In this document: positions 1-59,019 of the stretch, piece after piece | Layout: the number at the start of each line of letters is the position of its first letter | Position numbering within the stretch: position 1 is the first letter of the stretch | NCBI GenBank assembly: GCA_963701855.1 | Contig: CAVPBK010000012.1 | Span: 1-64,000 of the forward strand | Source: Nitrospirota bacterium | Lineage (GTDB): Bacteria; Nitrospirota; Nitrospiria; Nitrospirales; Nitrospiraceae | Direction of reading: 5' to 3' | Length of the DNA: 64,000 bases | Notes under the pieces: model-generated | What the model was told of the DNA's origin: nothing | Database searches by the model: none | The model's input: the letters and a program-made list of their open reading frames with translations, nothing else | Position numbers and translations under genes: made by a program

Positions 1-120
1 TTCGCCACTCCCACGGCAGCACCGGCTGCGGATCAGCCCACAATCCTTTCCTCGCCTCTCGCGCCGACTGCTCTAACTGCTCCAGTTCCGTATCTCCTAG
101 AGAATATTTTCGATACCAGC
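1..120 (-). pseudogene. Thermonuclease (SNase-like) 3' remnant
   Basis: Minus strand translates WYRKYSLGDTELEQLEQSAREARKGLWADPQPVLPWEWR, matching the C-terminus of the long copy at 48198-48704. Confidence 0.85.
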
Positions 121-358
121 GAGCCCACGATGCAGGCTGATTCTGTTCGATCCGATGTGTGAGAGAATAAAGCCCGTGCCGCCACACACAATGCCCTTCT
201 TCAGCATGGCGTCAGTCGCTCGGCCATCTCACTTCGAAAGAGTTTTCCGGACACCATTAGGTGATTCGCGGCCGCTGAAAAATCCATCTGTTCTTAACCG
301 TTTGGGAACGAGCCCAATGTCACTACCAGAAAATTCTCACGCATACATTCAGAAACTT

Positions 359-1006
359 TCAGAGACTCTTCATTAACCGGACGACCTTACCCCACACCTT
401 GTCCTGTTTCGATAATAGAAGGTTTTCATACCTTGGGTTCAGGGGATGGAGTATGTAGTGGCTTTCGATATATTCGACTTGTCTGAAGAGAGCGGTTTCT
501 GGGTGCCCTCCCGGACAATGGACGATGACATAGTCTCCGGGCTTCCACTTGCAATCTGGATCCACAAAAATGATCTGCCCCTCCCTGAACATGGTCTCCA
601 TCGAGTCATCCTTTACTTTCAAGGCGACGGTGCGTTTCCCAAAAATGTCTGTCGTATCGAGCGTCGCTTCGGCATGGATGACACCAGGAAGGCTTGTGCT
701 TGTGATAATCTGACTCATGTGATACCAGTCCAACAGGGGAATCTTCCGAATGAGACCAGTAGCAGACTGAAGGGTGCGATCTGATAGATTAAGAATCACT
801 GTTGAGTGTGTCGACCCACCGGTCTGAAGTACATCCACATCCACCCGAAAATACCTCGTAAATTTGTCCCATACGGCAGAGTCTGTAGGGAATTCATTGG
901 CAATAATATTCGTGATCGTTTGCAGGGAAACCTCAATGGCCGAGGCCAATTCCTCTTCCGTCAACCCTTCCTCTAATTCTCTAAGAATAAGACTTCTCAC
1001 GTTCAC
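359..1006 (-). CDS. XRE-type HTH / S24 peptidase (LexA/CI-like) transcriptional regulator
   Basis: N-terminal HTH (GLTEEELASAIEVSLQTI), IPLLDW linker, S24 motifs ALKVKDDSM and LHPLNPRY. Confidence 0.85.
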   Translation of the reverse strand: MNVRSLILRELEEGLTEEELASAIEVSLQTITNIIANEFPTDSAVWDKFTRYFRVDVDVLQTGGSTHSTVILNLSDRTLQSATGLIRKIPLLDWYHMSQIITSTSLPGVIHAEATLDTTDIFGKRTVALKVKDDSMETMFREGQIIFVDPDCKWKPGDYVIVHCPGGHPETALFRQVEYIESHYILHPLNPRYENLLLSKQDKVWGKVVRLMKSL

Positions 1007-1119
1007 AGCTAGTACTCCGATCGTTTCCTAACGCAGAATTTGACCACCACTCCACACCAAAGGAAAGGGCAGCATAATGAAAATGCTATTCTGCATTGTG
1101 CGACAAAGCAAGAGGAGCG

Positions 1120-1195
1120 ACGGGAGGGGTGAATCGAGAAGGGCATAGGGGACTGGGAGGGGCGTATTCTAAGAGGGAAGCGAAGAACGGCGCAA
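1120..1195 (-). promoter_or_regulatory. Repeated promoter + leader module (copy 1)
   Basis: TTGCGC-18nt-TAGAAT followed by ATG CCC TTC TCG ATT (MPFSIHPSRR); lies upstream of the S24 regulator. Confidence 0.65.
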
Positions 1196-1210
1196 GGGCC
1201 ACAGGCCGTC

Positions 1211-1267
1211 AGCGAGGGGAATGCGCCGTTGACGATGCAAGCACTCTCCGAGCTGCTACGCAGCTAG
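1211..1267 (+). pseudogene. DUF72-like protein C-terminal remnant
   Basis: SEGNAPLTMQALSELLRS*, same peptide as the remnants at 52605, 61065, 61700 and 62413. Confidence 0.6.
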
Positions 1268-1429
1268 GTGCTTCTGGGCCACAAATTCACCGCAGAGAAT
1301 GCAGTTGTAGTGTCCTGCTGAAGGCCCCACGTCATTCCATTCCAATTCCAGGTTTAGATGCTCACATGGTGATCGATCCGTTCGCTCTTTCCATTTCACT
1401 CGTAAAGCAGCCGCTTGATTTATGGTCAT
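1256..1429 (-). CDS. Small Cys/His-rich protein (possible zinc ribbon)
   Basis: CEHLNLELE...YNCILCGE; paralogue at 16768-16959; AAGGAGG RBS. Confidence 0.6.
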   Translation of the reverse strand: MTINQAAALRVKWKERTDRSPCEHLNLELEWNDVGPSAGHYNCILCGEFVAQKHLAA

Positions 1430-1539
1430 GGGATTGCCCTCCTTTTGGGTGGCAGCGCACAAGAAATTCTATCATGGCTTGCCTGAAGGACTAAAGGTGG
1501 TGAGAAAACGGACAAACCAATCCGCTGGTTGAGGGACAA

Positions 1540-3768: not shown

Positions 3769-3816
3769 GAGAAGGGGACAACAGGTGCACGGCCCCCCAC
3801 ATGAATCTACCTGCGC

Positions 3817-3844
3817 TTTCGCCACTCCCACAGCGGCACCGGCT
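3817..3844 (-). pseudogene. Thermonuclease extreme 3' remnant
   Basis: Encodes PVPLWEWRK; TTCGCCACTCCCAC core shared with other copies. Confidence 0.7.
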
Positions 3845-4390: not shown

Positions 4391-4831
4391 TCAAGGATGC
4401 AAAGTCTTGCCAGTAGCTCCTAAGAGTGGCGGACTACGAGAAGACGTACTGCCTTCGGTCTCAGCATCCAACGGTACGAGGCCTGACAAGTCCAGTGATT
4501 GCCCTCGTCTGGCCTTGCGATAGACCCACGGTGGGATGGGTGCCGGATCAACCCATAAGCCTTTCTTTGCCTCCCATGCATCCTTTTCCAGGCTTTCAAG
4601 CATGGAATCCTCCGGCGCATACTTCCGATACCACCAGCATCAGCCTTGCTTGACAAGTTCCTGATTGAGATTCATCCCATCGGGCAGGATCACATCGGCA
4701 ATGGCGCGCTTGTACTTGTCGTAGCCGTGGCTCTGTAGCGTGACTTCTTTCCCGAATACGAGGTCAGAGGCAGCCTGCTTCGCTCGTTTGCCGAACACCT
4801 GGCCTTTCTTAGGACAGTCGATGCTGCTCAG
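4391..4831 (-). pseudogene. Thermonuclease pseudogene, 5'-truncated with in-frame stop
   Basis: LSSIDCPKKGQVFGKRAKQAASDLVFGKEVTLQSHGYDKYKRAIADVILPDGMNLNQELVKQG*CWWYRKYAPE...GLWVDPAPIPPWVYRK. Confidence 0.9.
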
Positions 4832-4883
4832 TCATGAACGGACAGCCCAAGAGAAGGGCACACACTTACGTGGCCGATAAACG

Positions 4884-9096: not shown

Positions 9097-9225
9097 CGCT
9101 CCCTCCAATTGGGTTGTTGGCGTCAAGGGCGTGCATGGGGAGGGATCAGTATGGCGTGGCCCCGTGAGACCGTCAAGGCGCAGAGGATTCCTCAGGCAGT
9201 TCTGCCATCCATATCTTTACTGCCT

Positions 9226-9361
9226 CTTTCGCCACTCCCACGGCGGAACCGACTGTGGGTCGGCCCATAACCCTCGCTTGGCCTCTCGCGCGTCCTTCTC
9301 TAGCCCTTCCAGCACCGTATTCCCTGGCGCATAATTTCGATATCACCAGCACCAACGGTCT
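9226..9361 (-). pseudogene. Thermonuclease 3' remnant
   Basis: DRWCW*YRNYAPGNTVLEGLEKDAREAKRGLWADPQSVPPWEWRK. Confidence 0.9.
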
Positions 9362-9573
9362 ATGACCAGCGTATGAATAACATAGAGCTTCGCGCGAGAC
9401 ATGCGAGAAAAGCACGATGAGCAAGACTGCGAGAGAAGCACAGGCTGAAGGCCGAAGTTTTCGGAACATCATCCTTCAGCCATCGAACCCTTGCCATCCC
9501 ACCACTTTCGCCCGTCTCTCCCGCCCGCCCTTCTGGGAGTGACCGATCATTTGTGTTAAGCTCACTCTCACCG

Positions 9574-10552: not shown

Positions 10553-10714
10553 TCACGGCGCCACGGCTGCGGAACGGTCCACAAGCCTTTCTTCGCCTCT
10601 CGCGCTTCCTGCCCTAGCTTGTCAAGCTCTGCATCCAGTGGAGCGTACTTTCGGTACAATCAGCACCAACCGTCTTTGACGAGCTTCTGATTCAGGTTAG
10701 TACCATCCGGGAAG
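10553..10714 (-). pseudogene. Thermonuclease 3' remnant (degenerate)
   Basis: PDGTNLNQKLVKDGWC*LYRKYAPLDAELDKLGQEAREAKKGLW. Confidence 0.85.
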
Positions 10715-12636: not shown

Positions 12637-12740
12637 CGTGACGGAGCATTGTGCTGGGAAGCGACGATCGGAACGAATCGAGGGGGCATAGGAACCTCGC
12701 AGGGAGGCGTATTGTAGGAGAGAACTGAAGGAAGGCGCAA
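12630..12740 (-). promoter_or_regulatory. Repeated promoter + leader module (copy 3)
   Basis: TTGCGC-18nt-TACAAT, GAGG, ATGCCC; frameshifted leader SIRSDRRFPAQCSVTYN. Confidence 0.7.
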
Positions 12741-12872
12741 GGCCCGTTCTCATCGCACACCTGGGAGTGCGTGGGTATAACGAGGCCTGACTCGACTCAT
12801 ACTTCCAGACTCACGCTCTAGATCAGAACTGCTCTTCGCTTCAATGACTGATCTGAACGGCTATGCTATTTT

Positions 12873-13209: not shown

Positions 13210-14402
<1,193 letters not shown>

Positions 14403-14578
14403 GCCCCCTGAGTTGTACCAGCCGCAATGTGAGTCAGGCGTATTGTTGGTCTCACAGAACCTCCAAACAAGCAGCGTTCAAAGAGTGTGCGGCAAACCTG
14501 CAAAGCCTGGTGCTACGTTCCCGAGGCTGGATCTAACGGAGAATGCATCGCAGGTTGCTGCATGTATCCCGTCCCGCA

Positions 14579-37413: not shown

Positions 37414-37515
37414 GGTGATACTCCTGGAGCGTACAATCAGAAGATTTAGCCTATTCCCCGCCTGGAGACGAGCGCAAGCGAGAAGGAACAGTTCCTGCCC
37501 CCTTCTTCTCTTCCC

Positions 37516-38493: not shown

Positions 38494-38580
38494 GCGATTC
38501 GCCTTCCTTTCGGAATCACCCCGATGCACGATGGCAGGATCTCGCGGAGCGTACGAGTATCGGGAGGGCGCTGAGGCACA

Positions 38581-39462: not shown

Positions 39463-39489
39463 GTCCCTTGCGTCGCCTCGTGGTGAAGA

Positions 39490-39804: not shown

Positions 39805-39995
39805 GACGGGGAACTGAGAAATGGTTGTTTTGAACCACGTTCAGGATAGTAATGCCGCTGAGGCGGATGCGTTCAAGGTGGTGGTTGTGCAGGACTTCGA
39901 GGAGCTGGCCATCGGAAATGTTGGCGGCGAGGTCGGTGGGGCGAGGAGTTTAGGTCCATTGCTCTCCTGGTCGTTTTTCTGCAGTGTCGGCACCC

Positions 39996-40922: not shown

Positions 40923-41044
40923 CCGGCCCTCGGTTGCTTCGTGAAATCATCAGCGACAGATTATGATTCGGACCAAGGCTAGACGGCTCGTAAGGAGGTG
41001 TCAAGGCGGGTCGTCCAGGACCGTTGGTGGCTTTCTGCCTCTCC

Positions 41045-41169
41045 CTGCCGCCACTCCCACGGCGGCACCGGCTGCGGATCGGCCTACAATTCTCTCCTGG
41101 CTTCTCGCTCCTCCTTCTCCAACCCTTCCAGCACCGTATCCCCTGGCGCATACTTCCGATACCTCCAGC
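41045..41169 (-). pseudogene. Thermonuclease 3' remnant
   Basis: WRYRKYAPGDTVLEGLEKEEREARREL*ADPQPVPPWEWRQ. Confidence 0.9.
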
Positions 41170-41199
41170 GGGAATGAGACCATAATGGCTCTCTCTGAG

Positions 41200-42310: not shown

Positions 42311-42420
42311 CATGCGGGGTTGCAGCAACATCGACGGGTTGAAATTTGCAATCAGGGATGGATGCACAGCTTTGATTTTCCTGTTAGCGTCTGGGTTCAG
42401 TGGGTCTCCGGAACAAAGGG

Positions 42421-42599
42421 TTAGGCTCTTGCAGGAGGCTGCTCGAGATGAAACTCGGTGATAATGTCGTAGCGGTCTTGCTTCATGCAGAGACCCTTCC
42501 GATTGAGCGCTTCCACAATCGCGGCAATCTCCCACATGTGTTGGAGACGGTCGCTTCCTCAATGCTCATGCTGTCGCGTTTGGGGTTTTGGTTACTCAT
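42421..42599 (-). pseudogene. Remnant of 'MSIEEATVSNMWEIA' small protein
   Basis: Same peptide at 47372-47415; frameshifted here. Confidence 0.6.
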
Positions 42600-42642
42600 T
42601 GTGTAACCTTGTCTACGGCGAAGGTTGCAAGTGACTGCACGA

Positions 42643-43035
42643 TCACTTCTTGCCGCAGGCAAATTCCCACAAAGTTTGACCGATACTTTCTGGCACAACT
42701 GGTTCCCACTTTTGTTCGTTCGAGTTGACCGAAACCACCGTACCGTTGCCCATATTGCCAGAGAACTGAGTGGCCGCAAGAGTCCTCGTGCGCTCTTCGG
42801 CACAACTAAATTCCCGTTGCTTTTTGGTAGACAAAAACGAGGTGTTCTCCACGGTTTGTACAGTCTTGAAATCGTTCAATTGCCACATCTTCACCAAATC
42901 CCCCTTGCGGCGCACGGTATCTGGATTGACGTAGGTAGTCATTCCAATCTGGTCGTTGCCACCAACCGCCACCCATTCTGCATACGCTGGTCCACTACTC
43001 AGCACCAGGAGTGTGATCAGGAACAGTCGTTTCAT
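42643..43035 (-). CDS. Surface-adhesin-E-like exported protein
   Basis: SSGPAYAEWV, YVNPDTVRRKGDLVKMW, terminal ACGKK; paralogue of 50508. Confidence 0.75.
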   Translation of the reverse strand: MKRLFLITLLVLSSGPAYAEWVAVGGNDQIGMTTYVNPDTVRRKGDLVKMWQLNDFKTVQTVENTSFLSTKKQREFSCAEERTRTLAATQFSGNMGNGTVVSVNSNEQKWEPVVPESIGQTLWEFACGKK

Positions 43036-43162
43036 GTGAATCCCTCTGCGGAAGGCATGGTCACGAGGCCTTGAAGGGGGAAGCGATGGTAATGGCGAAT
43101 TGAGAAGGGCATAGGGCCTCGCAGGGAAGCGCATTCTAGTCGGATGTCGGCGTGAGGAGCAA
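43032..43162 (-). promoter_or_regulatory. Repeated promoter + leader module (copy 6)
   Basis: TTGCTC-18nt-TAGAAT; leader MPFSIRHYHRFPLQGLVTMPSAEGFT* whose stop overlaps the next ATG (ATGA). Confidence 0.75.
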
Positions 43163-43277
43163 GCGAGGGCACTAGGGGATTTCACAGTGCCGTAAATATC
43201 TGCGCAACCTTAACATTTAGCTCATCCCACGGTTCCCTATATGGCTGTTATTGAAACTGTCAGCAAGGAGGATGTAA

Positions 43278-43535
43278 ATGGCTGTTGCTGCCCCGTTTAT
43301 TCCGACAAGTCATGAGATGCCCTCAGCCTCGTGGAGGGGGACGACGTTACTCCCCTGTTGTTGTGTGTGCGGACTCGTTCGAGATGAGACCAGACCCGCA
43401 CATCATTCTCAGCGTTGGGTCATGCAGGGGACGTATCGAAATTTACATGGCGTGGAGCCGTCCAATTGCCTTTTGACTCATACCTACTGTCCAGAATGTT
43501 TATTACAAGCCCAGCATGGAATCAGGGCAGCCTAG
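43278..43535 (+). CDS. Small Cys-rich hypothetical protein
   Basis: AGGAGG RBS; CCVCG...THTYCPEC. Confidence 0.65.
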   Translation: MAVAAPFIPTSHEMPSASWRGTTLLPCCCVCGLVRDETRPAHHSQRWVMQGTYRNLHGVEPSNCLLTHTYCPECLLQAQHGIRAA

Positions 43536-43789
43536 GGGCTTGCCCAGTGATTGAAAAGGAGGTAAGGAAGAATGAACACAGAGAAGAAAGAGGAGTATGT
43601 CCAGCCAGTGCTCGTGAGGCACGAGTAGCTGCGGGATATTACTGCAAAGGCTTCTGGCGTTCATCTCTCAGCGTTTAGCTTAGGCCATTCCTATGGCCAT
43701 ACCATACCATCACCATCACCATGACAGATAAGCCACTGGGAGGGTGGTCGATTCATGAGAGTCGGCTACCCACGTTTCTCCCGATGCGC

Positions 43790-43848
43790 GAGGGCACGGG
43801 GGCCTCGCAGGGAGGCCTATTCTGGAAGGGAAGCGAAGGAAGGCCCAA
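43790..43848 (-). promoter_or_regulatory. Degenerate promoter module (copy 7)
   Basis: TTGGGC-18nt-CAGAAT, CCCTGCGAGGCC, GTGCCC. Confidence 0.55.
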
Positions 43849-43900
43849 GGGCGATCCGCGAGAGAATGGACGTAGTTGATCAACGGTCGAGAACTCGTGA

Positions 43901-43947
43901 CTTCCTCCACTTCCACGGTTCCACGGCGGCAACGGCTGGGGATCAGC
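43901..43947 (-). pseudogene. Thermonuclease extreme 3' remnant
   Basis: ADPQPLPPW...PWKWRK. Confidence 0.65.
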
Positions 43948-44049
43948 TCTCTTATGTTTTCGGATCACCACTATTTTTGGTAAGTCCGCGCATCTCTTGA
44001 AGAATAGCCACGCCCCCCATTCCACTCCATCCTGCGCTACTATTATACG

Positions 44050-44436
44050 ATGGCTCAGTGGACACAACAGACCAGGGAAGATAGTCCGGGGTTTAATACG
44101 AGGTTTACTATTGACTGTGTGCTTCCGCTCGCTAGCACCCAGCTTCAAGCGGACGGGTGCGTGCTCGAAAATATAGAGGATGGACATAAGCTCATCACCC
44201 CTGAGTACCTGAGAGCAGGGGATCTTGTGAAAATCCAATTATGGTTGGAAGGTGAGGAGGCCTTTGTAGACATCCCGCTGGCGGTAGTCAGTAAGGTTCA
44301 GGCCCCTTGGATCACGGTAGGTGTGATCCGGGTGAGCCCACCTGACCAGTTAAGATTGAAACAATTTATCCAGACCCCAGCAGCCATACACATTAAAAAA
44401 CCTGCTCTCATCGACCAACTTCTCATTCGGGCATAG
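44050..44436 (+). CDS. PilZ-like hypothetical protein
   Basis: LRAGDLVKIQLWL...AVVSKV...RLKQFI pattern; PilZ motifs degenerate. Confidence 0.55.
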   Translation: MAQWTQQTREDSPGFNTRFTIDCVLPLASTQLQADGCVLENIEDGHKLITPEYLRAGDLVKIQLWLEGEEAFVDIPLAVVSKVQAPWITVGVIRVSPPDQLRLKQFIQTPAAIHIKKPALIDQLLIRA

Positions 44437-44486
44437 TTCGTCGATTGTTGTGGGGGGGTGGAATGAGCCGGCCCGTCACGCGCCGC

Positions 44487-44971
44487 TCACCTACGCCCCT
44501 TTCGCCACTCCCACGGCGGCAGGGGATACGGGTCGGCCCACAGGCCTCGCCACGCTTCCGTGCCTCAGTCTCCAACTGTTCCAGCGCGACATTCCTCGGC
44601 ACATACTTCCGATACCACCAGCACCATCCGTCTTTGACCAACGTGTGATTCATGTTGGTGCCATCAGGCAGGATCACATCGGCAAGGGTGCGCTTGTACT
44701 TGTCGTAGCCGTGCGTCTGGATTGTGACTTCTTTGCCAAAGGCGAGGTCAGAGGCGGCCTGCTTTGCACGATGGCCGAAGGCTTGGCCTTTCTCAGGGCA
44801 GTCGATGCCACTGAGGCGGACACGCTCAGCATGGTGGCCATTCAGTACTTCGATGATGTCGTCATCGAGGACGGAGACAACGGGGCCGGTGAAGTCAGCG
44901 AAGGCCAGTGCAGGAAGAAGCGACAAGAATGTCGCGAATATGAGAGATGGCCGTATTGAGAAGGGTGTCAT
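44487..44971 (-). pseudogene. Thermonuclease, near full length, frameshift near 44550
   Basis: Signal peptide, FTGPVVSVLDDDIIEV, RLSGIDCPE, DKYKR, WWYRKY. Confidence 0.9.
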
Positions 44972-45476
44972 CGCTGTCTTTCGGCGGAACGCTCCAAACC
45001 GTGCCATGTCCATCGGGCACATAGCTAGCTGAAAACCGCACATCTCCCTCCTCCCTCTTAGACGCGGCAACCTTGGTCAGTCACGGGCTGACCCCCCGAC
45101 TCGCCATGATCCATCAAGGGTTATCGGCACTTCTCCTCCGTTGCTCCGCCACATGCCCGCCAAGGAATCCCCTAATTTCAACGGACTGCGACCAACGGAT
45201 TGAAGTGAACGAGGACGGCATGCTCTGTGCCTTACGACGATGCTGTAGGCACAATTCACGTGAGCAGTTTGAGGATTGTGCATATTTTTTTGAAAGGAGA
45301 CACACCATGACGATGATCGATGCGGTGTTGTTCAATGGTTCGCAGTATATCGTGTCGCTTGGACTCTTGGCCCTGGCGTGGGCAACGTTGCAGAGCAAAA
45401 ATACATGAACGCAGAGTTCGGCGGCGCGCACTGTTTGTAGCGTGAACGGTATTCACCACTAACCCAAGGAGGTCCC

Positions 45477-45767
45477 ATGATATCCATTCCCCAAGTTGGC
45501 AGCATCCTGTGTGGCATGGCGTTACTCTTGACTGCGTCCTACGCGGTCGCGCAAGCGCCGAATGACCCGACGCACAACCGGACCATCAAGGGCGACGTAG
45601 CGCGCATCGACTATGCGTACTATGTCGTCAAGGAGCAGGACGGCCGGGAAGTGCGCGTGCATGCAGATAAGACGACGCAGATGATGGGACAGCTCAAGCA
45701 GGGCGATCGTGTTGAAGCGGAAGTCACCGCTGAGAACCACATCCTGCGGATGCGTCCACTCCCCTGA
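45477..45767 (+). CDS. Small exported OB-like protein
   Basis: TIKGDVARID...GDRVEAEV. Confidence 0.75.
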   Translation: MISIPQVGSILCGMALLLTASYAVAQAPNDPTHNRTIKGDVARIDYAYYVVKEQDGREVRVHADKTTQMMGQLKQGDRVEAEVTAENHILRMRPLP

Positions 45768-45913
45768 GTCAATCTCTCATGGCCGCGGAAGGATGTGTTT
45801 TTGAGCTAGCGCATCCTTCCGCGGCCATGGTCGACCTTGATGATCTTTTCCGAATAGGCGTGACCAATTCCCCACTCACTCGGTCTGCGCTTACAACAAC
45901 CAAGGAGGTTGCC

Positions 45914-46285
45914 ATGTTATCTATGCTGAAAGCCATCGGTGCTCTGTCTTGTGGTTTCGTGCTGTGCGTGAGTTTGCCCAACACCACACAGGCCATCAAC
46001 AATCTGGCGCAAGAATTGGAACAACAAGAAGCTGACGAGCAAGCCGACAGGCTATCCGGTGCGGTGAAACAAGAGAAGGAAACACCGACGGGCGCCATCA
46101 CAGTTCGAGGTGAAGTGTTACGCATTAAACGCAATAACTATTTGATCAGGAAATTTACTGGTGACGTAGAACACTTGCATCTCGACGACAACACTCAAAA
46201 GACCGAGACTATTCGCCAAGGGGATCGGATTGTGGCGAAGGTGGACGATCAGAGGCATGTGTTGCTGATTGGACCGATTCAATAA
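45914..46285 (+). CDS. Small exported OB-like protein
   Basis: TVRGEVLRIK...GDRIVAKV; AGGAGG RBS. Confidence 0.75.
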   Translation: MLSMLKAIGALSCGFVLCVSLPNTTQAINNLAQELEQQEADEQADRLSGAVKQEKETPTGAITVRGEVLRIKRNNYLIRKFTGDVEHLHLDDNTQKTETIRQGDRIVAKVDDQRHVLLIGPIQ

Positions 46286-46299
46286 ACCGTTCCACTGCC

Positions 46300-46774
46300 G
46301 GTGCTGCTGCGAGAGACCCACGGGGGGGTTAGGCGAGGGATCAGCCCAGAGACCTTGCTTGGCCTCCCGTGTGTTCGTCTTTAGCTTCTCCAGTTCCGTA
46401 TCGAGCGGCGCATACTTCCGATACCACCAGCACCAGCCGTCTTTGACCAGCATGTGATTGACGTTGGTACCATCCAGCAGGAGCACATCGGCTAGGGTGC
46501 GCTTGTACTTGTCGTAACCGTGCGTCTGAAGGGTCACGTCTTGGCCAAATGCGAGTGCTGAGGCCGACTGTTTGGCTTTTTGACCAAAGGCTTGGCCTTT
46601 CTCAGGGCAGTCGATGCCGCTGAGGCGGAAGCGTTCAGCATGGTGGCCGTTTAGCACTTCGATGGTGTCGCCGTCGAGAACACTGACGACAGGGCCAGTG
46701 AAGTCGGCGAAAGCGACGGTTGGCGGTAACAGTATCAGCGAGAGAACAACAACTAGGCGCAACTGGCGTGGCAT
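46300..46774 (-). CDS. Thermonuclease (SNase-like), catalytic motifs intact, frameshift at extreme C-terminus
   Basis: LDGDTIEV, RLSGIDCPE, DKYKRTLA, GLWADP; G7 run at 46322-46328. Confidence 0.85.
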
Positions 46775-46895
46775 AGACAGGCCTTCCAGCATGGGGAATC
46801 GATAGCTCAGGCTGATCCCCTGGGCCTGCTCCCGCTGAGCAAGAGGATGAACCGGCTTGCCGAGCGCCTCTCCCTCACCGGGTTAGGTTGGGTGG

Positions 46896-47351
46896 TTATC
46901 CGAGTTTGTTAAGCTCGTCATCATGCTTTTTTAATAGGACTTCTGTTTGACGCATTCTCTCTTTACTGTCGCGATCACAGTGATCGAAATGTGCCCTGGC
47001 CTTGTCCCAATCTGAGCGGCTTACTACCTTGCGTTGTGGTATCCCTTTGTCATGGTAGTCAATCACAAAGACGCTGCCGTTCTCGGAGCACTTCTCCATG
47101 TCCTCAAGTTTCATATGCGTCCCAGCTATCCATGTCTCTTGAGTATAGCCGGTCTCAGGATTCAGTATGTGCGCGGTGACGGATTGATTACCTGACTTCA
47201 CCACTTTAAATACTCCTTCCTCCCCCTTTTGCATCTTCTCCCGCCACGCCTTCGTGACGACCACATCCTTCATGATGCCGTTTTCTTGTTCAATCTGAAT
47301 GGTCATCTTTTCGCCAAACATCGCATCAAATAATCCTGTACTAAACTTCAT
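46896..47351 (-). CDS. Hypothetical protein
   Basis: About 150-aa ORF, lower GC. Confidence 0.55.
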   Translation of the reverse strand: MKFSTGLFDAMFGEKMTIQIEQENGIMKDVVVTKAWREKMQKGEEGVFKVVKSGNQSVTAHILNPETGYTQETWIAGTHMKLEDMEKCSENGSVFVIDYHDKGIPQRKVVSRSDWDKARAHFDHCDRDSKERMRQTEVLLKKHDDELNKLG

Positions 47352-47550
47352 CTCACCCCCATTGGTTACACGCAATCTCCCACATGTTGGAGACGGTGGC
47401 TTCTTCTATGGACATGATCTCGTGTTTGGGGAGTTGTCGTTCATGGCGTAAACTCGTGTTTTCTGTTTCACCACAGTCTGGACCTTGATCGTGTCGTAGG
47501 TGGCCTCCCGCACTGATGATACTCCTCTTGATCATCATGAACATTGACCG

Positions 47551-47934
47551 CTATCTCTCAGGACTATCCCGACAAGCTTTCCGCAAGGCCTGGTAGAGGG
47601 CCCGGTGGACCATGAGGAGATGTCGCTCGCTCGGTCTGGCATCCAGCTCTGCCTTGAGTATGTCCCGTATCTGATCGGAAGTCATTCCTGCAACGCAGGG
47701 GTTGATCCAGAACAAGCCTGGCGTCTTCAGTGTGGCAGCGAGATCTAACCCATCCGCGACACCCATGGCATACGTGGCTTGCTCGGTTTTATTTAGCCCC
47801 AACCAATCATTGCCACTCATGAACCCTTTGGGCACATGTGCTTCATCAAGGCCCATCTCGGCTGTGGAAGAGAGAGCAGTGCCGAGTAGTAATCCGAGAA
47901 CCAATGGCGCTAGCCCAAGAATGTATTTCAACAT
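47551..47934 (-). CDS. Rap1a/Tai-like exported protein
   Basis: Signal peptide; SGNDW...YAMGVADG...C...TSDQIRDILK..L...P..RH...AL...C pattern. Confidence 0.55.
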   Translation of the reverse strand: MLKYILGLAPLVLGLLLGTALSSTAEMGLDEAHVPKGFMSGNDWLGLNKTEQATYAMGVADGLDLAATLKTPGLFWINPCVAGMTSDQIRDILKAELDARPSERHLLMVHRALYQALRKACRDSPER

Positions 47935-48021
47935 ATGCCCTCCTCGGAAGACGCGGTCTCATGAGCAGTGATGCATGCTCGTCTCTTTGGTGTCATCCGT
48001 CACAAGAGCTGGCTTACCGAA

Positions 48022-48074
48022 AATAGAGGTCTCGCAGGGAGGCATATTGTAGGAAGGGGACGATCAAACCGCAA
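48022..48074 (-). promoter_or_regulatory. Repeated promoter module (copy 8), leader lost
   Basis: TTGCGG-17nt-TACAAT, CCTCCCTGCGAGACCTCT. Confidence 0.7.
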
Positions 48075-48197
48075 GGCGGGGCGTGGGGAATTGGTGGTAT
48101 TGATTGGAGGAACTTTTCTGGATGGCAGGTTACTTTTCAGGTCTGGATAAACCTCTTACTGACAACTATGTGCCGATCGATTTCTTGTTGCGTCCAC

Positions 48198-48704
48198 TCA
48201 ACGGTTCAGTTTCCGCCACTCCCACGGCGGCACGGGTTGCGGATCAGCCCACAAGCCTTTCCTCGCTTGGCGTGCCTCCGCCTCTAGCTTCTCTAGGACT
48301 GTATCCCCTGGCTCATACTTGCGATACCACCAGCAACAACCGTCTTTGACAAGCGTCTGGTTGACGTTCGATCCATCGGACAGAAGCACATCGGCCAGAG
48401 TGCGCTTGTACTTGTCATAGCCGTGCGTCTGGAGCGTGACGTCTTTCCCAAAGACTAAGGCTGACGCAGCCTGCTTGGCCTGCTTGCCGAACGCTTGGCC
48501 TTTCTTCGGGCAATCGATGCCGCTGAGGCGGATACGCTCAGTATGGTGGCCGTTCAGGACTTCGATCGTGTCGCGGTCAATTACCCCGACGACTCTTCCG
48601 GTGAAGTCGGCAGCAAGGCCCAGAACCGGACACAGCAGAACGATGTAAATGAACCAAAGAATTACTGCGGCTAAGAACAAAGTGGAGGGCGGTAAGAACC
48701 TCAC
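48198..48704 (-). CDS. Thermonuclease (SNase-like), full length, motif substitutions
   Basis: IDRDTIEV, RLSGIDCPK (conserved E replaced by K), PVPPWEWRK. Confidence 0.85.
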   Translation of the reverse strand: MRFLPPSTLFLAAVILWFIYIVLLCPVLGLAADFTGRVVGVIDRDTIEVLNGHHTERIRLSGIDCPKKGQAFGKQAKQAASALVFGKDVTLQTHGYDKYKRTLADVLLSDGSNVNQTLVKDGCCWWYRKYEPGDTVLEKLEAEARQARKGLWADPQPVPPWEWRKLNR

Positions 48705-48758
48705 AAATATTCTTCCTATGGGACCATGGCACAGCCATGGCAGCCTCCTGGCTGCCTC

Positions 48759-49157
48759 CTATGGACGAAACGACTTTGTCTGACGTTTTCGATCGCGGAC
48801 GACGAGTGAGGGGAGCCCCTCGTTGTCCACCGAGAGGACCAACCGTGTTTTGCCATCCACATCACGCACCTCTACTCCGGTGTCCTTGGAGATCCCGACC
48901 CGCACCCGCGCAGTATCAAACTCATCGCGCATGGTGAGGACCGGCTGCCCTTCGTCGTTGAAGGAAAGGGCGGCTCGCGTGTGCCCCTGTTGATCAATGA
49001 GGCGGAACTCCTTGGCACTGACGACGGCGGGCACCTCCCCTGCCGGTTCTTGCGCCGTGACAAGGCCTCCCCCGACCAGAAAGATGGCGACAATTCCGCC
49101 AAGCAGTCCAGATAGCATACTGACCGTGATGAGCACCCCTGTCTGTGGTCTGTCCAT
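48759..49157 (-). CDS. Hypothetical membrane-anchored protein
   Basis: TM segment, then AKEFRLIDQQGHTRAAL beta repeats. Confidence 0.7.
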   Translation of the reverse strand: MDRPQTGVLITVSMLSGLLGGIVAIFLVGGGLVTAQEPAGEVPAVVSAKEFRLIDQQGHTRAALSFNDEGQPVLTMRDEFDTARVRVGISKDTGVEVRDVDGKTRLVLSVDNEGLPSLVVRDRKRQTKSFRP

Positions 49158-49374
49158 GAGTCTTCTCCTTATTGTTACGTGGTCTTCGTTGGCAGCGTTC
49201 CTCCTGGCACGTCTCTCAAGATGAACACATGAGGGAACTCACGCCACAGCTAGGTTGGCTATGAGGCGCTGCGTTCACGCTAAATTCTGTCATGCTATCA
49301 GCTTACGAGGGTAGGAGCGAAAGGAAACGCCTGGGCTATTTCTGTCCAATCCTCACAAAGGAAGGGAGGTTCCA

Positions 49375-49719
49375 TCAACAGAGTTGCACCGTGGCAACCG
49401 TCGTGTCGTCGTTGACATATACATAGAAGCAACCACGGCTCGCCGTGTGCGGAGACTGCTGCACGAACAAGACGGACCATTCTCTGGCGTGCGAGTCAAA
49501 AATCACGCTGGTGATGTCGTAGTCATAGAGCTTCTGCTGGATCACCTTCCGGGCTGCCGTTTTGGCGAGGGTGAGCACCTCAGGCTGGGTCAACTGCGAG
49601 GAACTCTTGCCGGGAGAGGCATCAGGGCCTGAGGGCTGGGTAGAGCGCACAACCGTCGGTGCAAGACCTGCAAGACACAGGACAAGACCGACAGCTCTGA
49701 GAACTGTCGTGGCTCTCAT
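49375..49719 (-). CDS. Hypothetical exported protein
   Basis: Signal peptide; operon-like with the upstream genes. Confidence 0.55.
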   Translation of the reverse strand: MRATTVLRAVGLVLCLAGLAPTVVRSTQPSGPDASPGKSSSQLTQPEVLTLAKTAARKVIQQKLYDYDITSVIFDSHAREWSVLFVQQSPHTASRGCFYVYVNDDTTVATVQLC

Positions 49720-49755
49720 GTGATAACGCTCCGCGTGTGATCTGGCGTTCCACGC

Positions 49756-50055
49756 CTACTTCTGCTTCGCCACAATCTTGTATTTGATCCCCTCATACGT
49801 GGCTCGTGGAAGAATCTTCTTCTGCACCAACTCATCTTTCCGTGCATACGGTCGGCCCTTAATGATCTTTTCAGAGTACGCATCGCTAATACCGGGGAGC
49901 GCCTTGAGTTGGTCGGCGGTGGCCGTGTTGAGGTCGAGGAGATCGTCTTTCTCAGCCGCAGCGAGGACAGGGCCGGGACTGAGCGGGACAGACACAATGA
50001 GTCCCGTGATGGCAAACAGAAAGAATGCGCCGATGAACACACGTAGACCAGTCAT
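49756..50055 (-). CDS. ComEA-like helix-hairpin-helix DNA-binding protein
   Basis: LDLNTATADQLKALPGISDAYSEKII. Confidence 0.88.
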   Translation of the reverse strand: MTGLRVFIGAFFLFAITGLIVSVPLSPGPVLAAAEKDDLLDLNTATADQLKALPGISDAYSEKIIKGRPYARKDELVQKKILPRATYEGIKYKIVAKQK

Positions 50056-50420
50056 GATGCTGTCTCCTTCATTGGTGTGAGATCGTTCCTCACTTGTCGA
50101 ACCTGGACCTCGATCTTCCGTGCAAGCGCCTGCCCCTGCCGACTGAGCGACAAACGCACGGCACGACTATCCGTGACCGAACGACGCTTCCTGACCCAGC
50201 GTTTCCCCGCGAGGTCCTTCGCTACCACACTCAACGTCGGGAGTGTCACGAGGAGCGCGGTTGCGGCATCCGTCAGCTTGGCATCCATGTGCCGTTGCAG
50301 ATAGAGGAGCACGCCCGCTTGGAGCGGTGTCACGCGGATCGAGTCCAATCGTCGTCTGAACTAGCCGTGCAACTGCAACACCAGTTCCAGGAGTGTCAGC
50401 GCCTCATGGCCATTGTGCAT
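50052..50420 (-). pseudogene. MarR-family regulator with in-frame TAG at 50362-50364
   Basis: TPLQAGVLLYL...DSRAVRLSLSRQG. Confidence 0.75.
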
Positions 50421-50507
50421 GACGCCTCGCATAGTTAGTGCCTCGTCCCCTTCGCTACCCGCTGCCCCACCTCAATAAGCCGCCTCAACCATTTGAGCAC
50501 TACGCGA

Positions 50508-50972
50508 TCACTTCTTGCCACATGCAAGTTTCCATTCCCGTTTACCAAGAGTTTCTGGTGCAATTGGTATCCACTGGCCTTCCGCTAAGCTTGACGAAAC
50601 CACCTTACCTTTTCCCATGTTGCCAGCCATCTCGAAAATTGAATTCGTCCGAACGCGCTCTCCTTTGCAGTCGTACTCACTTCGCATCTTCGTAGAAAAA
50701 ACAGCGTCGCGTCCCGTGGTTATAGGAGTCTTGTAGTCATACAAGAGCCATATCTTCACCAGATTTCCGTTGCGACGAATGGTGTCTGGATCGAAGTGCA
50801 CCGTCATCCCGTCGGCTTCGGTAAGCCTCACCCATTCCGCATTCGCTGGAACAGTATTCAGCAGTAGGAGAGTTGTCATTGCCCAGAAGCTCAAAAAGAA
50901 GAGTGGCCCCGCGTTGTTCGTAACGGCGCAGTGCGCAGGAAAGCGACGGTGTGGGCGAATCGAGAAGGGCAT
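50508..50972 (-). CDS. Surface-adhesin-E-like protein carrying the conserved leader
   Basis: MPFSIRPHRRFPAHCAVTNNAGP + signal + FDPDTIRRNGNLVKIW...ACGKK. Confidence 0.75.
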   Translation of the reverse strand: MPFSIRPHRRFPAHCAVTNNAGPLFFLSFWAMTTLLLLNTVPANAEWVRLTEADGMTVHFDPDTIRRNGNLVKIWLLYDYKTPITTGRDAVFSTKMRSEYDCKGERVRTNSIFEMAGNMGKGKVVSSSLAEGQWIPIAPETLGKREWKLACGKK

Positions 50973-51024
50973 AGAGGCCTCGCAGGGAGAGGGTAGTGTA
51001 GGAGGGAAACGAACTATGGTGCAA
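50970..51024 (-). promoter_or_regulatory. Repeated promoter module (copy 9)
   Basis: TTGCAC-18nt-TACACT, CCCTGCGAGGCCTCT ATG. Confidence 0.7.
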
Positions 51025-51043
51025 GGGCCGATGCGATTGGTTA

Positions 51044-53646: not shown

Positions 53647-54019
53647 GGGTAGAACCTCCGGGTGAAGTGAGGGGCATGAGAAAGCATGCGTGCAGACAGA
53701 AATGCGGCGCGTCGGAACTAGAATATGGCCTCACCCGCCGCCCTTTAGCGCGGATGATGAACCTGCCCACCTCCTCCATGCTGTCTTCTTTTATACACTT
53801 CTGCGAAAAATCTGAGTGGGTTTCCCACCCCTGCGTTGCTTAGATGAAGATCGGGTTGAATCTGCTGACTGAACAATTTTGACCAGATTGCCTTCCTCCT
53901 AGCCTGATGCAGTTTCTGCCCCTAGTACCAACTTGGCCTAGCGTTCTCAAGGGGAGCTGGCCATGGGAGTCACACCGATGGCGACATTTAATCCCCAGAC
54001 GTTCCTCAAAGAGATCGGC

Positions 54020-55292
54020 AGCGAACGCCATGCTCAAAAAGGCCAGCCTAGGGCATGTGTGCGGCGCCGGTGCTATGGCTACGTCGAGATCGTCTCGTCC
54101 GTGCTCGATGCCTACGGGCGGCCCAAGCGCGATCACGTAGAACGGAAAATCAACGAGCAACAAGCGGACGTGGTCCGGCAGATCTTCCGCCTCTGCGCTG
54201 CCGGCAAAGGGATGGTGTCGATCGCCAAGCAACTGAACGATGAGGGTAAGCCGGCCCCACGAAATAGCCAGGGCCGTCAGATCTCCTGGAGCCCGTCGTC
54301 CGTGCGCAGCGTGCTCTTCCGGCCACTGTACCGCGGCATCGTGACATGGAACCGGACCAAGAAGCGCAATACCTGGGGCATTCAACAGCAGCGCAAACGC
54401 CCGGAGAAGGACTGGCTCAAGATCAGCATGCCGGAGCTTCAAATTGCCTCCGAAGCGGAATGGAGGGCTGCCCATGATCGGCTGACCGCAACGCGTGCCG
54501 TGTACTTACGCGGGACGAAAGGCGAGTTGTGGGGAAGGCCGGCCAGCACGCTCGATTCCAAGTACTTGCTCACAGGGCTGGTGAAGTGCGGCGCATGCGG
54601 AGGAAGTATCTATGTAAAGAGCAGCTCCCGGAAGGGAGAACGTGCGCTTTTCTATGGCTGTATGACCTTTCATCTTCGCGGACGGACCGCATGTGCCAAT
54701 AGTCTTCTGACGCCCATGGATCGGGCTAACGAGGAAGTGCTCCGCGTGCTCGAGCACGATGTGTTGCATCCGAACGTCATTGCGACGGTGGTGCGGAAGG
54801 CCGTGGATAAGTTTCGGACGTCGGAACGGGAATGGAAGGAACGCCGGGAGGCGCTACACAAGCAAATCTCCTCGATCGACATTGAGCTCGGGCGGCTCGT
54901 GGCAGCCATCTCATCCGGAGGAGACATCCCGGCACTGGTCGCGGCGGTCAAAATAGCGAATGACCGAAGAACAGTGCTGTCGCAGGATCTGGCGGAGGTC
55001 GATAGCCAACAACATTCGGACGCCGATTATGATCAGCTAGAAAAAGAACCGCGGGCACACTTCGAAGCGTCCTGGCAGACGATATTAACCAGGTTGTTCA
55101 GACTCGCCAGATCCTCCGAAAACTTCTCGGCCCGGACCGCCTCCCCTTCATCCCCATGACGAATGAGCGTGGCTCTCAGTATGAATTTAAAGGGACCGCT
55201 TCGATTGGGCGGTTAGTGGCTGGCCGTGCAAAGGCCCTGGTGTCCCCAACGGGACCCGTCAAACCAGGGAGCAACTATAGAGCACGCGCTTA
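54020..55292 (+). pseudogene. Large serine recombinase lacking the catalytic N-terminus, frameshifted
   Basis: CYGY, ADVVRQIF, IAKQLN, YRG, LLTGLVKCGACGG zinc ribbon, coiled coil; second frame ends LVSPTG. Confidence 0.85.
55238..55254 (-). repeat. tRNA(Glu)-like 3'-end fragment (att-like) inside the recombinase 3' end
   Basis: TGGTGTCCCCAACGGGA identical to 23660-23676. Confidence 0.6.
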
Positions 55293-56585: not shown

Positions 56586-56800
56586 GCAGGAAATCCTCGC
56601 ACAGCCCGCGGCCGGGCCCAAGCGTCATTACCGAAACATGACCCCAAGCACGGTGCCGGTCGCGACGATGACACCCCGGGCCAGCAATGCCTCGAAGAGC
56701 GAGCGCATTTCAGCCATGGTCTTTACCCCTTCATGTTGAAGATAGCGCCGATTGGGCATTTCGCAAACCTCGGAGTCACCCTAGAAGTGAAAGGAACATC

Positions 56801-57322
56801 ATGGGCGGTCTGACTCCGAAACAAGCGCGGTTTGTTCAAGAGTATCTCGTCGATGTGAACTCGACGCAGGCAGCAATTCGAGCTGGGTACAGCAAAAAGA
56901 CCGCGCAGGAGCAGTCGTCCAGGTTGTTATCAAATGTTATGGTTTCGGCGGCGGTTGCCAAAGAGCAGCACGCACTGGGGAGAAGAGGGGAGGCGGAGAA
57001 GGTGATCGCGGAGTTGGCGCTAATTGGTTTTGCCAACATGGGGGACTACGTGAATCTCTCTGATCCAGACAAACCAATGGTTGACCTTTCGAACCTCACC
57101 CCAAAGCAAGCATCAGCGATTGCAGCGGTCACGTACGAGAAGCGAGGGATAGAGCGACGTGTGAAGATCAAGCTACACGATAAGCTCAATGCCTTGGTGA
57201 CTCTCGGAAAGCATCTTGGGCTATTCAGTGAACGTCACTTACTCGGTGGTCTCGATGGCGGCGAGGTCAAGCAAGTCCATTCGATGGAAGTGGCGTTCGT
57301 CAAACCCCCGAGGTCACTATGA
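56801..57322 (+). CDS. Phage terminase small subunit
   Basis: LTPKQARFVQEYLVDVNSTQAAIRAGYSKKTA; KIKLHDKLNAL..LGKHLGLF. Confidence 0.9.
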   Translation: MGGLTPKQARFVQEYLVDVNSTQAAIRAGYSKKTAQEQSSRLLSNVMVSAAVAKEQHALGRRGEAEKVIAELALIGFANMGDYVNLSDPDKPMVDLSNLTPKQASAIAAVTYEKRGIERRVKIKLHDKLNALVTLGKHLGLFSERHLLGGLDGGEVKQVHSMEVAFVKPPRSL

Positions 57323-57371
57323 AGGTCAGCTTCCCGACACGTTGGGGGAGGATGCGTAGAGTAGTCGGGAC

Positions 57372-58238
57372 TCACTGAGCCGGTGAAGAGGCCGGCCATC
57401 CCATGGCAAGGTCCGCCACGATCGTCCCAATGACGACTTTGGCCTTCATGCGAAGCGGAATCCGCCTCGCGTCATTGGTGAACCATACCCGAATGTTCCC
57501 CTGGTTGAGGAAGATACCTTGGAACGGCATCACGACCAACACCCGAATAGTTTCGATCGTACCCCATGCACCCCTGATGGTCTCAATCTTTTCCACGAGT
57601 ACGTCTAGCTGATAATTCTTTTTATCATGGTGCACATTCATCGTCAGAGACGACCCTGGGTAGGGCCGTAACTCACTGCGGGCATAGTAGAGACAGGAAA
57701 TGGCATCTTGAGTGTGTGGCAGGATCGGTAATGTTTCCGTCGACCCTCCTTTGACCTCTGTGACTGTGCCCTCTTTTTGATGAAAGCTGTACTCGATGTC
57801 TTCTTTCTTTTTTCCTTCTCGTCGCCGAAAGCTCAAGTGTTCTGGGAGCAAGGTCTCGGGATCCACCAGCGACTCCACCCGGTTATCCACGGGGAAAAAT
57901 TTCGTGATGGCAGGCCGCGACTGTGCGGTGGTCACCAATTTTAGAAGGGGAGGATTTCCGTCTGTCCCAGCAGTGACTCCCATGACTGCCGTCCCGGCCG
58001 TGATATTCAGCCAAGTGATCGTGTAGGTGAACTGTTCTCCGATGTGGAAGGGGCGCCCTGAAGGGAGCGGGCTGCTGTCCCCAGCCCACGAAACCGTCAG
58101 ATTCATGGAGCTCAGGATCAGGGCTACCAGTACGCGAACCACTCCGATGGGCACACAATAACCGCCACCCATTCGCGCTATTATCCTCGCCAGGGGTTCA
58201 CTTGAGACCGAAGATGGCGCAGATGAACCATGCCACAC
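57372..58238 (-). CDS. DUF3108-like protein
   Basis: GEQFTYTITWLNITAG, IRVWFTNDARRIPLRM; start uncertain. Confidence 0.75.
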   Translation of the reverse strand: MWHGSSAPSSVSSEPLARIIARMGGGYCVPIGVVRVLVALILSSMNLTVSWAGDSSPLPSGRPFHIGEQFTYTITWLNITAGTAVMGVTAGTDGNPPLLKLVTTAQSRPAITKFFPVDNRVESLVDPETLLPEHLSFRRREGKKKEDIEYSFHQKEGTVTEVKGGSTETLPILPHTQDAISCLYYARSELRPYPGSSLTMNVHHDKKNYQLDVLVEKIETIRGAWGTIETIRVLVVMPFQGIFLNQGNIRVWFTNDARRIPLRMKAKVVIGTIVADLAMGWPASSPAQ

Positions 58239-58343
58239 ATCACTGAATCAATCCGTGCGATGAGCCCAATGCGGTTGGAGGAGCTGGGAAATCCAAGTCA
58301 GTAGAGGGATCCGAACTGCTGTGGCCCTTGATGCGCGGTGTAT

Positions 58344-58545
58344 CTACCTTGGTTCCTGGGCAACTTGATGCACCAGTTGCCAATCGCCTTTGAGTTGGGT
58401 GACCGCTTTATCACACTGGGGCCACCAGACGGTCAACTCGCCATTTTTCTCGCGGACTTCCACTTTGATCGCCTTGGCCATGGTCTTCGACTGAAACCAA
58501 TAGACTCCTGGTCTCGTCGGAAACTCGGTCCCCCGCCAGAAGGAG
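58344..58545 (-). pseudogene. 'PTxPGxYWF' family copy
   Basis: PTRPGVYWFQ...VEVREKNGELTVWWP. Confidence 0.6.
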
Positions 58546-59000
58546 GCTGTCAAGAAAAGTCTTATGGCCCTCACGAGGCGAGATACGACAGCTCCTTCAC
58601 GATCTTTCAATACCAGCAGTTCCATCATGCCATCTCGATACGAAGGCCCGGTCCTTCTCGGAGCCGGGCCTTCACCGATCAAAACTCCATCAGAATTCCG
58701 ATGGCGTTCACGGCTCGTTCACAACGCGTCCGCTGTGGCCGTGTTCCCATCGCGTTTTCTGACATACCACATCGTCCTGGATCCGCGAGAAAAGGGCCAC
58801 TAGGGAACACCCTAGTGATGGGCCGTTTCCAGCCTTATGAGCCATCCGCCCTCCTATATTTTATTTATCTGGTCACCTGGGCTGCCTGTGCAAGTCCAGG
58901 TCTTTGGTGAACCGAGCTGGACTCAAACCAGATACAAGATTCGGTCGTAACAAATGCTCGTATAGCAGAGCGATTGTTCCGCTCATTCTAACGGCTCCTC

Positions 59001-59019
59001 TTCCGCCACTCCCACGGCG
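59001..59019 (-). pseudogene. Thermonuclease extreme 3' remnant
   Basis: TTCCGCCACTCCCACGGCG (PWEWRK), identical to 48211-48229. Confidence 0.6.

Follow-up and report, generated by a model that had tools for sequence, protein, structure and literature searches.

Introduction

Integron arrays consist of small modules without a recombinase of their own, each with a recombination site at its end, and the modules lie in one orientation and in contexts that vary by genome; the attC site has a GTTRRRY core and is a folded imperfect palindrome. The pdif modules of Acinetobacter plasmids use 28-bp dif-like sites of alternating orientation and are moved by the host XerC/XerD recombinases, and in the orphan toxin-immunity modules downstream of cdiA/rhs the 5′ edge of the gene fragments is conserved while the 3′ part varies. 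In soils and water treatment, nitrite is oxidised mainly by Nitrospira, which are also the complete ammonia oxidisers there, and to our knowledge little is known about how their accessory genes move. Islands in tRNA genes are associated with displaced tDNA fragments, often in tandem, as outlined for the Islander database (PMC4383910), and dusA-specific integrases, as far as their description goes (PMC4482086), place islands that carry their own integrase in the 5′ end of a housekeeping gene. Here, we analyze the first 64 kb (the window; positions 1 to 64,000) of the 107-kb contig CAVPBK010000012.1 of a Nitrospira genome (GCA_963701855.1), in which pieces of thermonuclease genes of the staphylococcal nuclease (SNase) family, mostly 3′ fragments, recur on one strand.

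The core TGGGAGTGGCGG, which encodes WEWR at the extreme 3′ end of the nuclease gene, lies at junctions of small gene cassettes, and with moderate confidence we regard the persistence of the 3′ end as a DNA site, with the core as a recurrent junction, as the best single account of the junction data. The published literature, in the part covered by our search, holds no description of nuclease-gene fragments or of such cassettes in Nitrospira.

Results

Nuclease gene pieces in the genome and the genus

The genome under study (G000) comprises 4.30 Mb in 15 contigs with a G+C content of 0.55. Pfam assigns three window genes, the three long copies A, B, and C described below, to the SNase family PF00565 (89.5, 74.3, and 71.2 bits; cut-off 21). 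From nine long copies, we constructed a DNA profile (493 positions) and used it with nhmmer to search both strands of the genome. In the window, the profile matched 13 pieces on the minus strand and none on the plus strand; the two shortest relics (3816-3844 and 58990-59019) are below its reach and were recovered via the core motif and the repeat families D8 and D17. The motif GCCACTCCCACRGC has eight matches in the window, all in one orientation, while shuffled sequences predict 0.09. The original prediction, made from the sequence of the window alone, had listed 14 thermonuclease sites on the minus strand, and all 14 are real (12 by profile and the two shortest by motif and repeat families). 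It was also right that the core survives in relics of ~20-30 bp, as the two shortest relics document, and that each of the three long copies is damaged; it had overlooked an internal piece at 39843-39914, and its coordinates, although they match the sites, are offset on the tail side by up to ~130 nt (4391 versus 4522).

Genome-wide, the profile search yielded 59 pieces, which by our own classification comprise 10 near-full copies, 28 3′ fragments without the 5′ part, and 21 others, seven of which retain the 5′ conserved part without the 3′ end. By the DNA profile, 28 pieces thus keep the 3′ end versus seven of the 5′ type, and 5′ fragments are not as frequent as 3′ fragments. Almost every long copy in the genome carries stops or frameshifts; a divergent copy at contig 6 266897-267331 (~46% identity) is intact, has intact counterparts in several relatives, and is probably a stable paralogue.

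The phenomenon is genus-wide. The protein of copy C has matches in 18 of 18 genomes of the same genus (1 to 40 each) and in 7 of 12 genomes from other families of the order (1-3 each), and most of the matches listed span only residues ~100 to 168. In 92 loci of relatives, the profile identified 42 full copies, 79 3′ fragments, and 42 other pieces, counts that are biased in that the loci were found with peptides of the query. Neighbouring pieces in the genome that lie within 12 kb of each other are co-oriented in 30 pairs and opposed in six, and in the five loci of relatives with at least three pieces, 26 of 26 pieces are co-oriented. In the window itself, co-orientation is less striking and partly reflects a regional strand bias because, by our own count, 23 of the 30 other Pfam-annotated genes in 1-59019 also lie on the minus strand.

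The core at the 3′ end of the nuclease gene

The core lies in a conserved stretch of ~36 nt, GATCCGCAGCCGGTGCCGCCGTGGGAGTGGCGGAAG, and the site can be read as CCGCC, an 8-nt spacer, and GGCGG, a small inverted repeat (in five of the five sites folded). As a test of detection bias, we compared 11-mers of the core with those of WWYRKY, the other best-conserved motif. The commonest core 11-mers occur 65-76 times inside long hits (at least 80 nt) and 21-28 times outside, and the commonest WWYRKY 11-mers 52-80 times inside and 1-8 times outside. Counted beyond all such hits, core 11-mers number 26, whereas WWYRKY 11-mers of equal conservation number 1-7. Eight relics retain at most 25 nt of SNase sequence to the left of the core. 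Among 49 full copies, the third positions of the two core proline codons carry 1.29 and 0.90 bits of information versus 0.25-0.48 bits at five other prolines.

Two further observations concern the core sequence. At 15 of 19 positions, 11 of them consecutive, the core with its surroundings is identical to the start of tRNA-Leu(tag) at its 5′ end (contig 6 1446850-1446932); tRNA mimicry by the core is a weak lead, and there is no displaced tRNA-Leu fragment in the genome. A repeat starting with GGGAGTGGCCAAGGCTGCCC, whose first 9 nt equal the nuclease core, has 31 copies in the genome (at most eight mismatches in 45 nt; for example contig 6 35149 and 837362) and none in the window, and some of its copies form inverted pairs ~90 nt apart.

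Gene cassettes with ends at the core

To read junctions, we compared G000 with a sister genome (G015) and a third genome (G077). Contig 4 of G000 and contig 24 of G015 are collinear with ~95% identity over 12 kb and share five nuclease pieces of equal extents; such arrays are therefore inherited. The sole difference is a segment of 820 nt (contig 4 277956-278775) that only G000 has and that lies between the two copies of a 15-nt direct repeat of the target end, GGGAGTGGCGGAAGA (at 277941 and 278776), of which the empty site in G015 has one copy. The segment has the left end ...GCCGCCGAGGGAGTGGCGGAAGA and the right end ...ACTCCCATGGGAGTGGCGGAAGA, and in G015 one ...GCCGCCGAGGGAGTGGCGGAAGA runs on into the right flank. 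It contains two small ORFs, one for a cysteine-rich 93-aa protein, a paralogue of which lies directly behind another relic core 3.7 kb upstream. In a search of 85 genomes of the genus, the segment was also found in G077 with 85% identity; the match covers query positions 423-1293 and the cores lie at ~442-456 and 1277-1291, placing both edges within ~20 nt of cores, and the right-hand relic in G077 has the same nuclease-derived sequence in a less decayed form. Upstream of the first core lies a block made up of non-nuclease DNA and a nuclease fragment that starts at profile position 314; this block recurs in many genomes, and among the ~48 matches listed none extends beyond the core while 11 end at query positions 440-464.

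A second case is the TerB cassette of the window (39852-41074, minus strand), which is 97% identical to contig 3 of G015 and has a different upstream neighbour there. Identity begins inside the nuclease-derived CAGCCGGTGCCGCCG.GGGAGTGGCGGCAG and stops within the core at 41058-41074; upstream lies a 125-nt nuclease fragment in G000, and in G015 a 437-nt mini-cassette with two small ORFs and then a nuclease fragment. The variant GGCGGCAG is common to the TerB copies of both genomes, which differ at the base preceding GGGAG. Taken together, the sequences of the 820-nt segment and the TerB block suggest GGGAGTGGCGG as the probable crossover interval.

Other blocks have similar ends. The block at window 43921-44664 stops at the relic core in both G000 and G015, where the downstream context differs; in G000 and G015 alike, a block on contig 8 (~5165) ends 20 nt past an isolated core; and an 890-nt block that follows the core at contig 9 485683 occurs twice in G015, behind a degenerate relic core. 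Within the window, a minus-strand cassette between two cores (43921-44443) contains a 128-aa ORF on the plus strand (44050-44436) and has matches of ~72-89% in many genomes of the genus, most of which begin between 43921 and ~43990, i.e. at the relic core or at most ~70 nt from it. Comparing 349 kb of G015 with G000 gave 68 blocks of at least 500 nt and at least 88% identity with 119 informative ends, eight of which (six distinct places in G000) lie at most 30 nt from a core-like 15-mer, versus ~0.5 expected by our arithmetic from the fraction of sequence that core-like sites occupy. Junctions and direct repeats lie at the core.

We discarded a wider all-against-all test of block ends in the 92 loci (29 versus 2.5 expected) because the ends were mostly those of nuclease-to-nuclease matches. 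We also considered a single element that targets the nuclease gene and ruled it out, as the inserts that split such genes on contigs 3, 8, and 9 are mutually unrelated. In assembled contigs of four soil runs covering 31000-50900, there was no core-to-core excision among the joints; joints link paralogues or members of a second repeat family (see below), and the places where loose ends accumulate (32107, 46406-46408, and 48211) lie at edges of conserved nuclease sequence.

Decay of the nuclease genes

Pairs of fragments have a median pN/pS of 0.30 in the 3′ region at a pS of 0.50, and full copies have 0.32 in the 3′ region and 0.35 over the whole gene; even in fragments, conservation at codon positions 1 and 2 exceeds that at position 3. 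The copies therefore diverged while they were still functional genes. Judged by these sequence patterns, the pieces look like relics of numerous distinct genes rather than recent copies of one, and the genes look like they were acquired separately and carried on islands. The fragments are now decaying: 26 of 61 have at least one stop in the 3′ region, 13 have frameshifting gaps, and stop density there is 1.22 per 100 codons versus 0.34 in full copies.

Intact nuclease genes of relatives lie in mobile contexts, behind restriction-modification genes or SRAP-UmuD-UmuC, and near integrases and a primase-like gene. One exact core in a collection of viral contigs, which we give as context only, lies within a nuclease gene that is intact and follows a type III restriction-modification pair. 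At least four arrays of the genome sit within ordinary tRNA-integrated islands. One of these islands (contig 9 482153-490020), 7.7 kb long, contains three nuclease pieces and has the intact tRNA-Ser(tga) at one end and a displaced 39-nt 5′ fragment of this tRNA at the other. Its integrase reads toward the tRNA, and its site is empty in three other genomes.

Weighing the DNA site against decay

The proposal that the 3′ end is kept as a DNA site, as suggested in the original prediction, stands in part: the junctions inside the core, the excess of 28 over seven, the isolated cores, and the third-position information at the two core prolines support it, and the broad breakpoints, the unreduced pS, and the failure to find an enzyme in our searches do not. 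The serious main rival is plain decay with short-homology exchange, in which each arriving island brought a nuclease gene and random insertions and deletions broke the redundant copies, the core is merely the longest near-identical run among paralogues and thereby favours short-homology recombination, and the 3′ end outlasts the 5′ end either because 5′ stumps with a promoter and signal peptide do harm or because 3′ sequence is the most readily detected. We consider this possible, if on the whole doubtful.

The following results weigh against a DNA site, and many of them are what decay predicts. The 5′ breakpoints of the 79 3′ fragments in the relatives' loci are broad (profile positions 100-450), and the truncations look like ordinary deletions and not like site-directed cuts. 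Relics that start past profile position 420 make up 10 of these 79, about as many as evenly spread breakpoints predict. Pieces of 5′ or internal type account for 21 of the 59. The pN/pS of fragments resembles that of selected proteins and equals that of full copies, so most of the conservation is inherited from working genes, and the stops in 26 of 61 fragments also fit decay. For nucleotide conservation in excess of the synonymous expectation, the result is divided: third-position information is raised at the two core prolines, whereas pS of the 3′ third is not lowered (0.55 versus 0.56 for the whole gene), and any nucleotide-level constraint is therefore limited to ~20 nt. The higher conservation of the core in relics is biased because relics were found via the core itself. 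Single-strand DNA folding of the five core sites gave no signal beyond shuffles (z -0.99 to +0.62).

Among the junctions, that at contig 9 485683 is not clean, as in contig 23 of G015 the insert replaces profile positions 417-465, giving decay one untidy junction; block ends near cores in the wider all-against-all comparison mostly mark where SNase-to-SNase matches end, and many are trivial gene ends; and polarity, insertion versus deletion, was established for none of the cases. Because at least four arrays lie inside tRNA-integrated islands, the islands themselves do not use the core.

The search for an enzyme likewise counts against a site and in favour of decay, as no recombinase in the genome could be tied to the core. 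For the integron integrase family TIGR02249, none of 19 matches is above the cut-off of 265 bits, the best scoring 80.8 bits. None of the 22 tyrosine-recombinase matches in the genome, several of which adjoin tRNA genes, lies on the array-bearing contigs 4 or 5. In the window, a large serine recombinase (53963-55159), beside the gene for a small terminase subunit, has the recombinase and zinc-ribbon domains without the resolvase catalytic domain; it is truncated and is the sole match to its family in the genome. The 820-nt and 437-nt cassettes contain only small ORFs and no recombinase gene. In five loci of relatives, integrase genes follow the nuclease gene downstream at a distance of 0.2-1.7 kb, and we considered an autonomous element with those integrases and rejected it, since there is no second core within 6-kb flanks.

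Four observations speak against decay. Although a repeat of 15 nt offers little length for exchange of the RecA type, cores bound one and the same cassette in two genomes. Isolated cores outnumber isolated WWYRKY motifs several-fold. Because 5′ pieces are detectable, and seven are present, detection alone cannot yield 28 versus seven. Finally, the pieces are locally co-oriented (30 versus six pairs).

Other explanations

We find it improbable that a needed element just downstream, such as a promoter-like repeat for the next gene in some cassettes, protects the 3′ end, so that deletions could consume the nuclease gene from its 5′ side and would have to stop at its end. Three copies of such a repeat do lie 10-95 nt downstream of SNase pieces (48023-48103, 43782-43850, and 39724-39833), with TTGCGC, 18 nt, and TAGAAT on the minus strand, which we ourselves read as promoter-like; however, the repeat adjoins only three of the 15 window pieces, the sequence right after the core varies among copies, and cassette boundaries inside the core are left unexplained. 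The repeat belongs to a second family of 45-110 nt, found in the window at 1116-1199, 2465-2510, 12674-12744, 25989-26034, 39724-39833, 43082-43164, 43782-43852, 48023-48103, 50942-51028, and 60996-61034, in which a putative promoter on the minus strand is followed by a GCCTC...GAGGC hairpin; one contig from a soil run joins 43821 to 48062 across two of these repeats.

We rate as very improbable that the pieces serve as silent donors from which gene conversion would renew an expressed nuclease gene, in the manner of pilS copies for pilin. Co-oriented copies without a 5′ end near full-length ones, and protein identities of 60-80% among copies, would fit this idea, but the in-frame stops and frameshifting gaps of the fragments and the damage to all three long window copies do not, and the conserved part is the end rather than conserved regions that bracket a variable one. 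Least credible of all is a classical integron with the pieces as attC sites and the modules as integron cassettes, for although the arrays are of small, mostly co-oriented modules that each end in a repeated site, no integrase reaches the cut-off, TGGGAGTGGCGG is unlike the attC GTTRRRY, and there is no folding signal.

Features of the window

ORF calling and Pfam define the window as a flexible region with numerous short ORFs of no assigned family; it also carries SRAP, UmuD, and UmuC (SOS mutagenesis), cytochrome bd, adhesin-E-like lipoproteins, IS110 and rve transposase fragments, and the truncated large serine recombinase and small terminase subunit mentioned above. Rfam and tRNA scans of the window gave no matches. 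A 1169-nt element at 13241-14409, with a 379-aa ORF that has no Pfam match (E 0.001), is probably an active insertion sequence because three further copies in the genome are near-identical (99.6-99.9%).

The nuclease pieces all lie on the minus strand and were identified with nhmmer except where another method is named. The window starts at base 1 of the contig, inside a core, and its first copy, a 3′ fragment at 3-119 (profile 364-480, E 9e-24, core at 4-17 supported by the motif), is therefore truncated by the assembly. We note that assemblies often break inside nuclease fragments, as at window 1-17 and at contig ends of relatives such as G013:C27:3-137 and G007:C146:3-149. A short relic at 3816-3844 (motif and repeat family D8) consists of the core and ~14 nt of SNase-derived left arm. 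It is followed by a fragment at 4522-4844 (profile 154-476) with two TGA stops and a degenerate core, by 3′ fragments at 9221-9383 (profile 327-489) and 10555-10713 (profile 311-470), both with an in-frame stop and the latter with a degenerate core, and by one at 30984-31131 (profile 331-478), also with a degenerate core. The 3′ fragment at 32103-32198 (profile 393-488) has a core that, together with 220 nt downstream, is 90% identical to 44277-44542. Downstream of SRAP-UmuD-UmuC (Pfam) lies a 3′ fragment at 33691-33819 (profile 356-484), and the gene order around 33691-37034 (SRAP-UmuD-UmuC, nuclease) is that of a relative with an intact SNase gene. The internal piece at 39843-39914 (profile 115-187, E 9e-10, also found by tblastn) is without the 3′ end, the 3′ fragment at 41045-41169 (profile 360-484) has an in-frame TAG, and the relic at 43907-43947 (profile 446-487) has a degenerate and partly duplicated core. 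The shortest relic (58990-59019; motif and repeats), core plus 5 nt of left arm, lies ~115 nt downstream of a sulP-like gene, and the tail of this relic is similar to that of a contig 11 fragment. Most of the short fragments have in-frame stops.

The DGDT and DxPE residues of the nuclease have metal-binding and catalytic roles, and both motifs are intact in none of the three long copies of the window while they are present elsewhere, for example at contig 6 1525026. Copy A (44423-45070; profile span 44493-44977) has DDDI in place of DGDT and a frameshift before GLWADP. Copy B (46118-46792; profile span 46302-46776) ends in degenerate sequence (PNPPVGLSQ...) and, with its stop lost, reads on for ~60 codons. 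Copy C (48198-48704; profile span 48203-48683) is an open frame of 168 aa that matches solved thermonuclease chains (E 2e-8); it reads IDCPKKGQ where the solved S. aureus nuclease has VDTPEF, changing the motif glutamate to lysine, and also has DRDT where DGDT is expected.

Discussion

We suggest the following scenario for the reading that we prefer, in which the 3′ end persists as a DNA site. The window would be a mosaic flexible island of a soil Nitrospira, to which secreted SNase-type genes would have come repeatedly on mobile islands, where they now decay. TGGGAGTGGCGG would act as a recurrent recombination junction at which gene modules of 0.4-3 kb, most of them without their own recombinase, may be inserted, lost, and exchanged, each event leaving a co-oriented copy of the core. 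Later deletions would shorten the redundant nuclease gene from its 5′ side while leaving its end in place. We infer that a trans-acting, site-specific recombinase, probably of the tyrosine type, and not short-homology recombination carries out the exchange. Going further, we only tentatively propose an integron-like cassette system without an integron integrase, with the site in the last codons of the nuclease gene, in which cassettes of one to a few genes would move between islands at TGGGAGTGGCGG by means of a trans-acting recombinase and the 3′ fragments would be the sites needed for mobility.

Should the core prove to be a true recombination site, it would define, by a protein motif, a cassette system invisible to standard integron and island finders and would explain part of the mosaicism of Nitrospira flexible regions and the assembly breaks there; the 36-bp site and its recombinase would be candidate tools for hard-to-manipulate organisms. 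If the pattern is merely decay with short homology, one conserved gene end is still a preferred breakpoint of island rearrangement throughout the genus.

How does this arrangement compare with known systems? The Nitrospira fragments are co-oriented 3′ gene fragments in arrays, as are the cdiA/rhs orphans, and have a conserved 3′ end, which is the reverse of the pattern there. As in pdif modules, small discrete modules lie between short sites made of inverted half-sites and a recombinase would be encoded elsewhere; unlike in pdif, the core copies are direct repeats. The use of a conserved stretch of a protein gene as an attachment site is shared with the dusA islands as far as these have been described, but the Nitrospira site is the 3′ end of an accessory multi-copy gene with no linked integrase. 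As for tRNA-gene islands, within the scope of the Islander description, the insert is flanked by direct repeats of the target-gene end, the target is regenerated, and co-oriented partial copies accumulate; in contrast to them, the target is the last codons of an island-borne protein gene, the inserts are 0.4-3 kb without an integrase, and the partial copies range from 15 nt to a whole gene. Like integron cassettes, the modules are small, lack their own recombinase, end in a site, and are stacked in one orientation in contexts that differ between genomes, whereas IntI is absent, the core is different, the site lies in coding sequence, arrays occur at many places in the genome, and attI and a common promoter were not identified. 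We conclude that the working mode is most like the target-end repeats of integrative islands and the cassettes of integrons, while it lacks the defining features of an integron and the linked integrase of a classical island.

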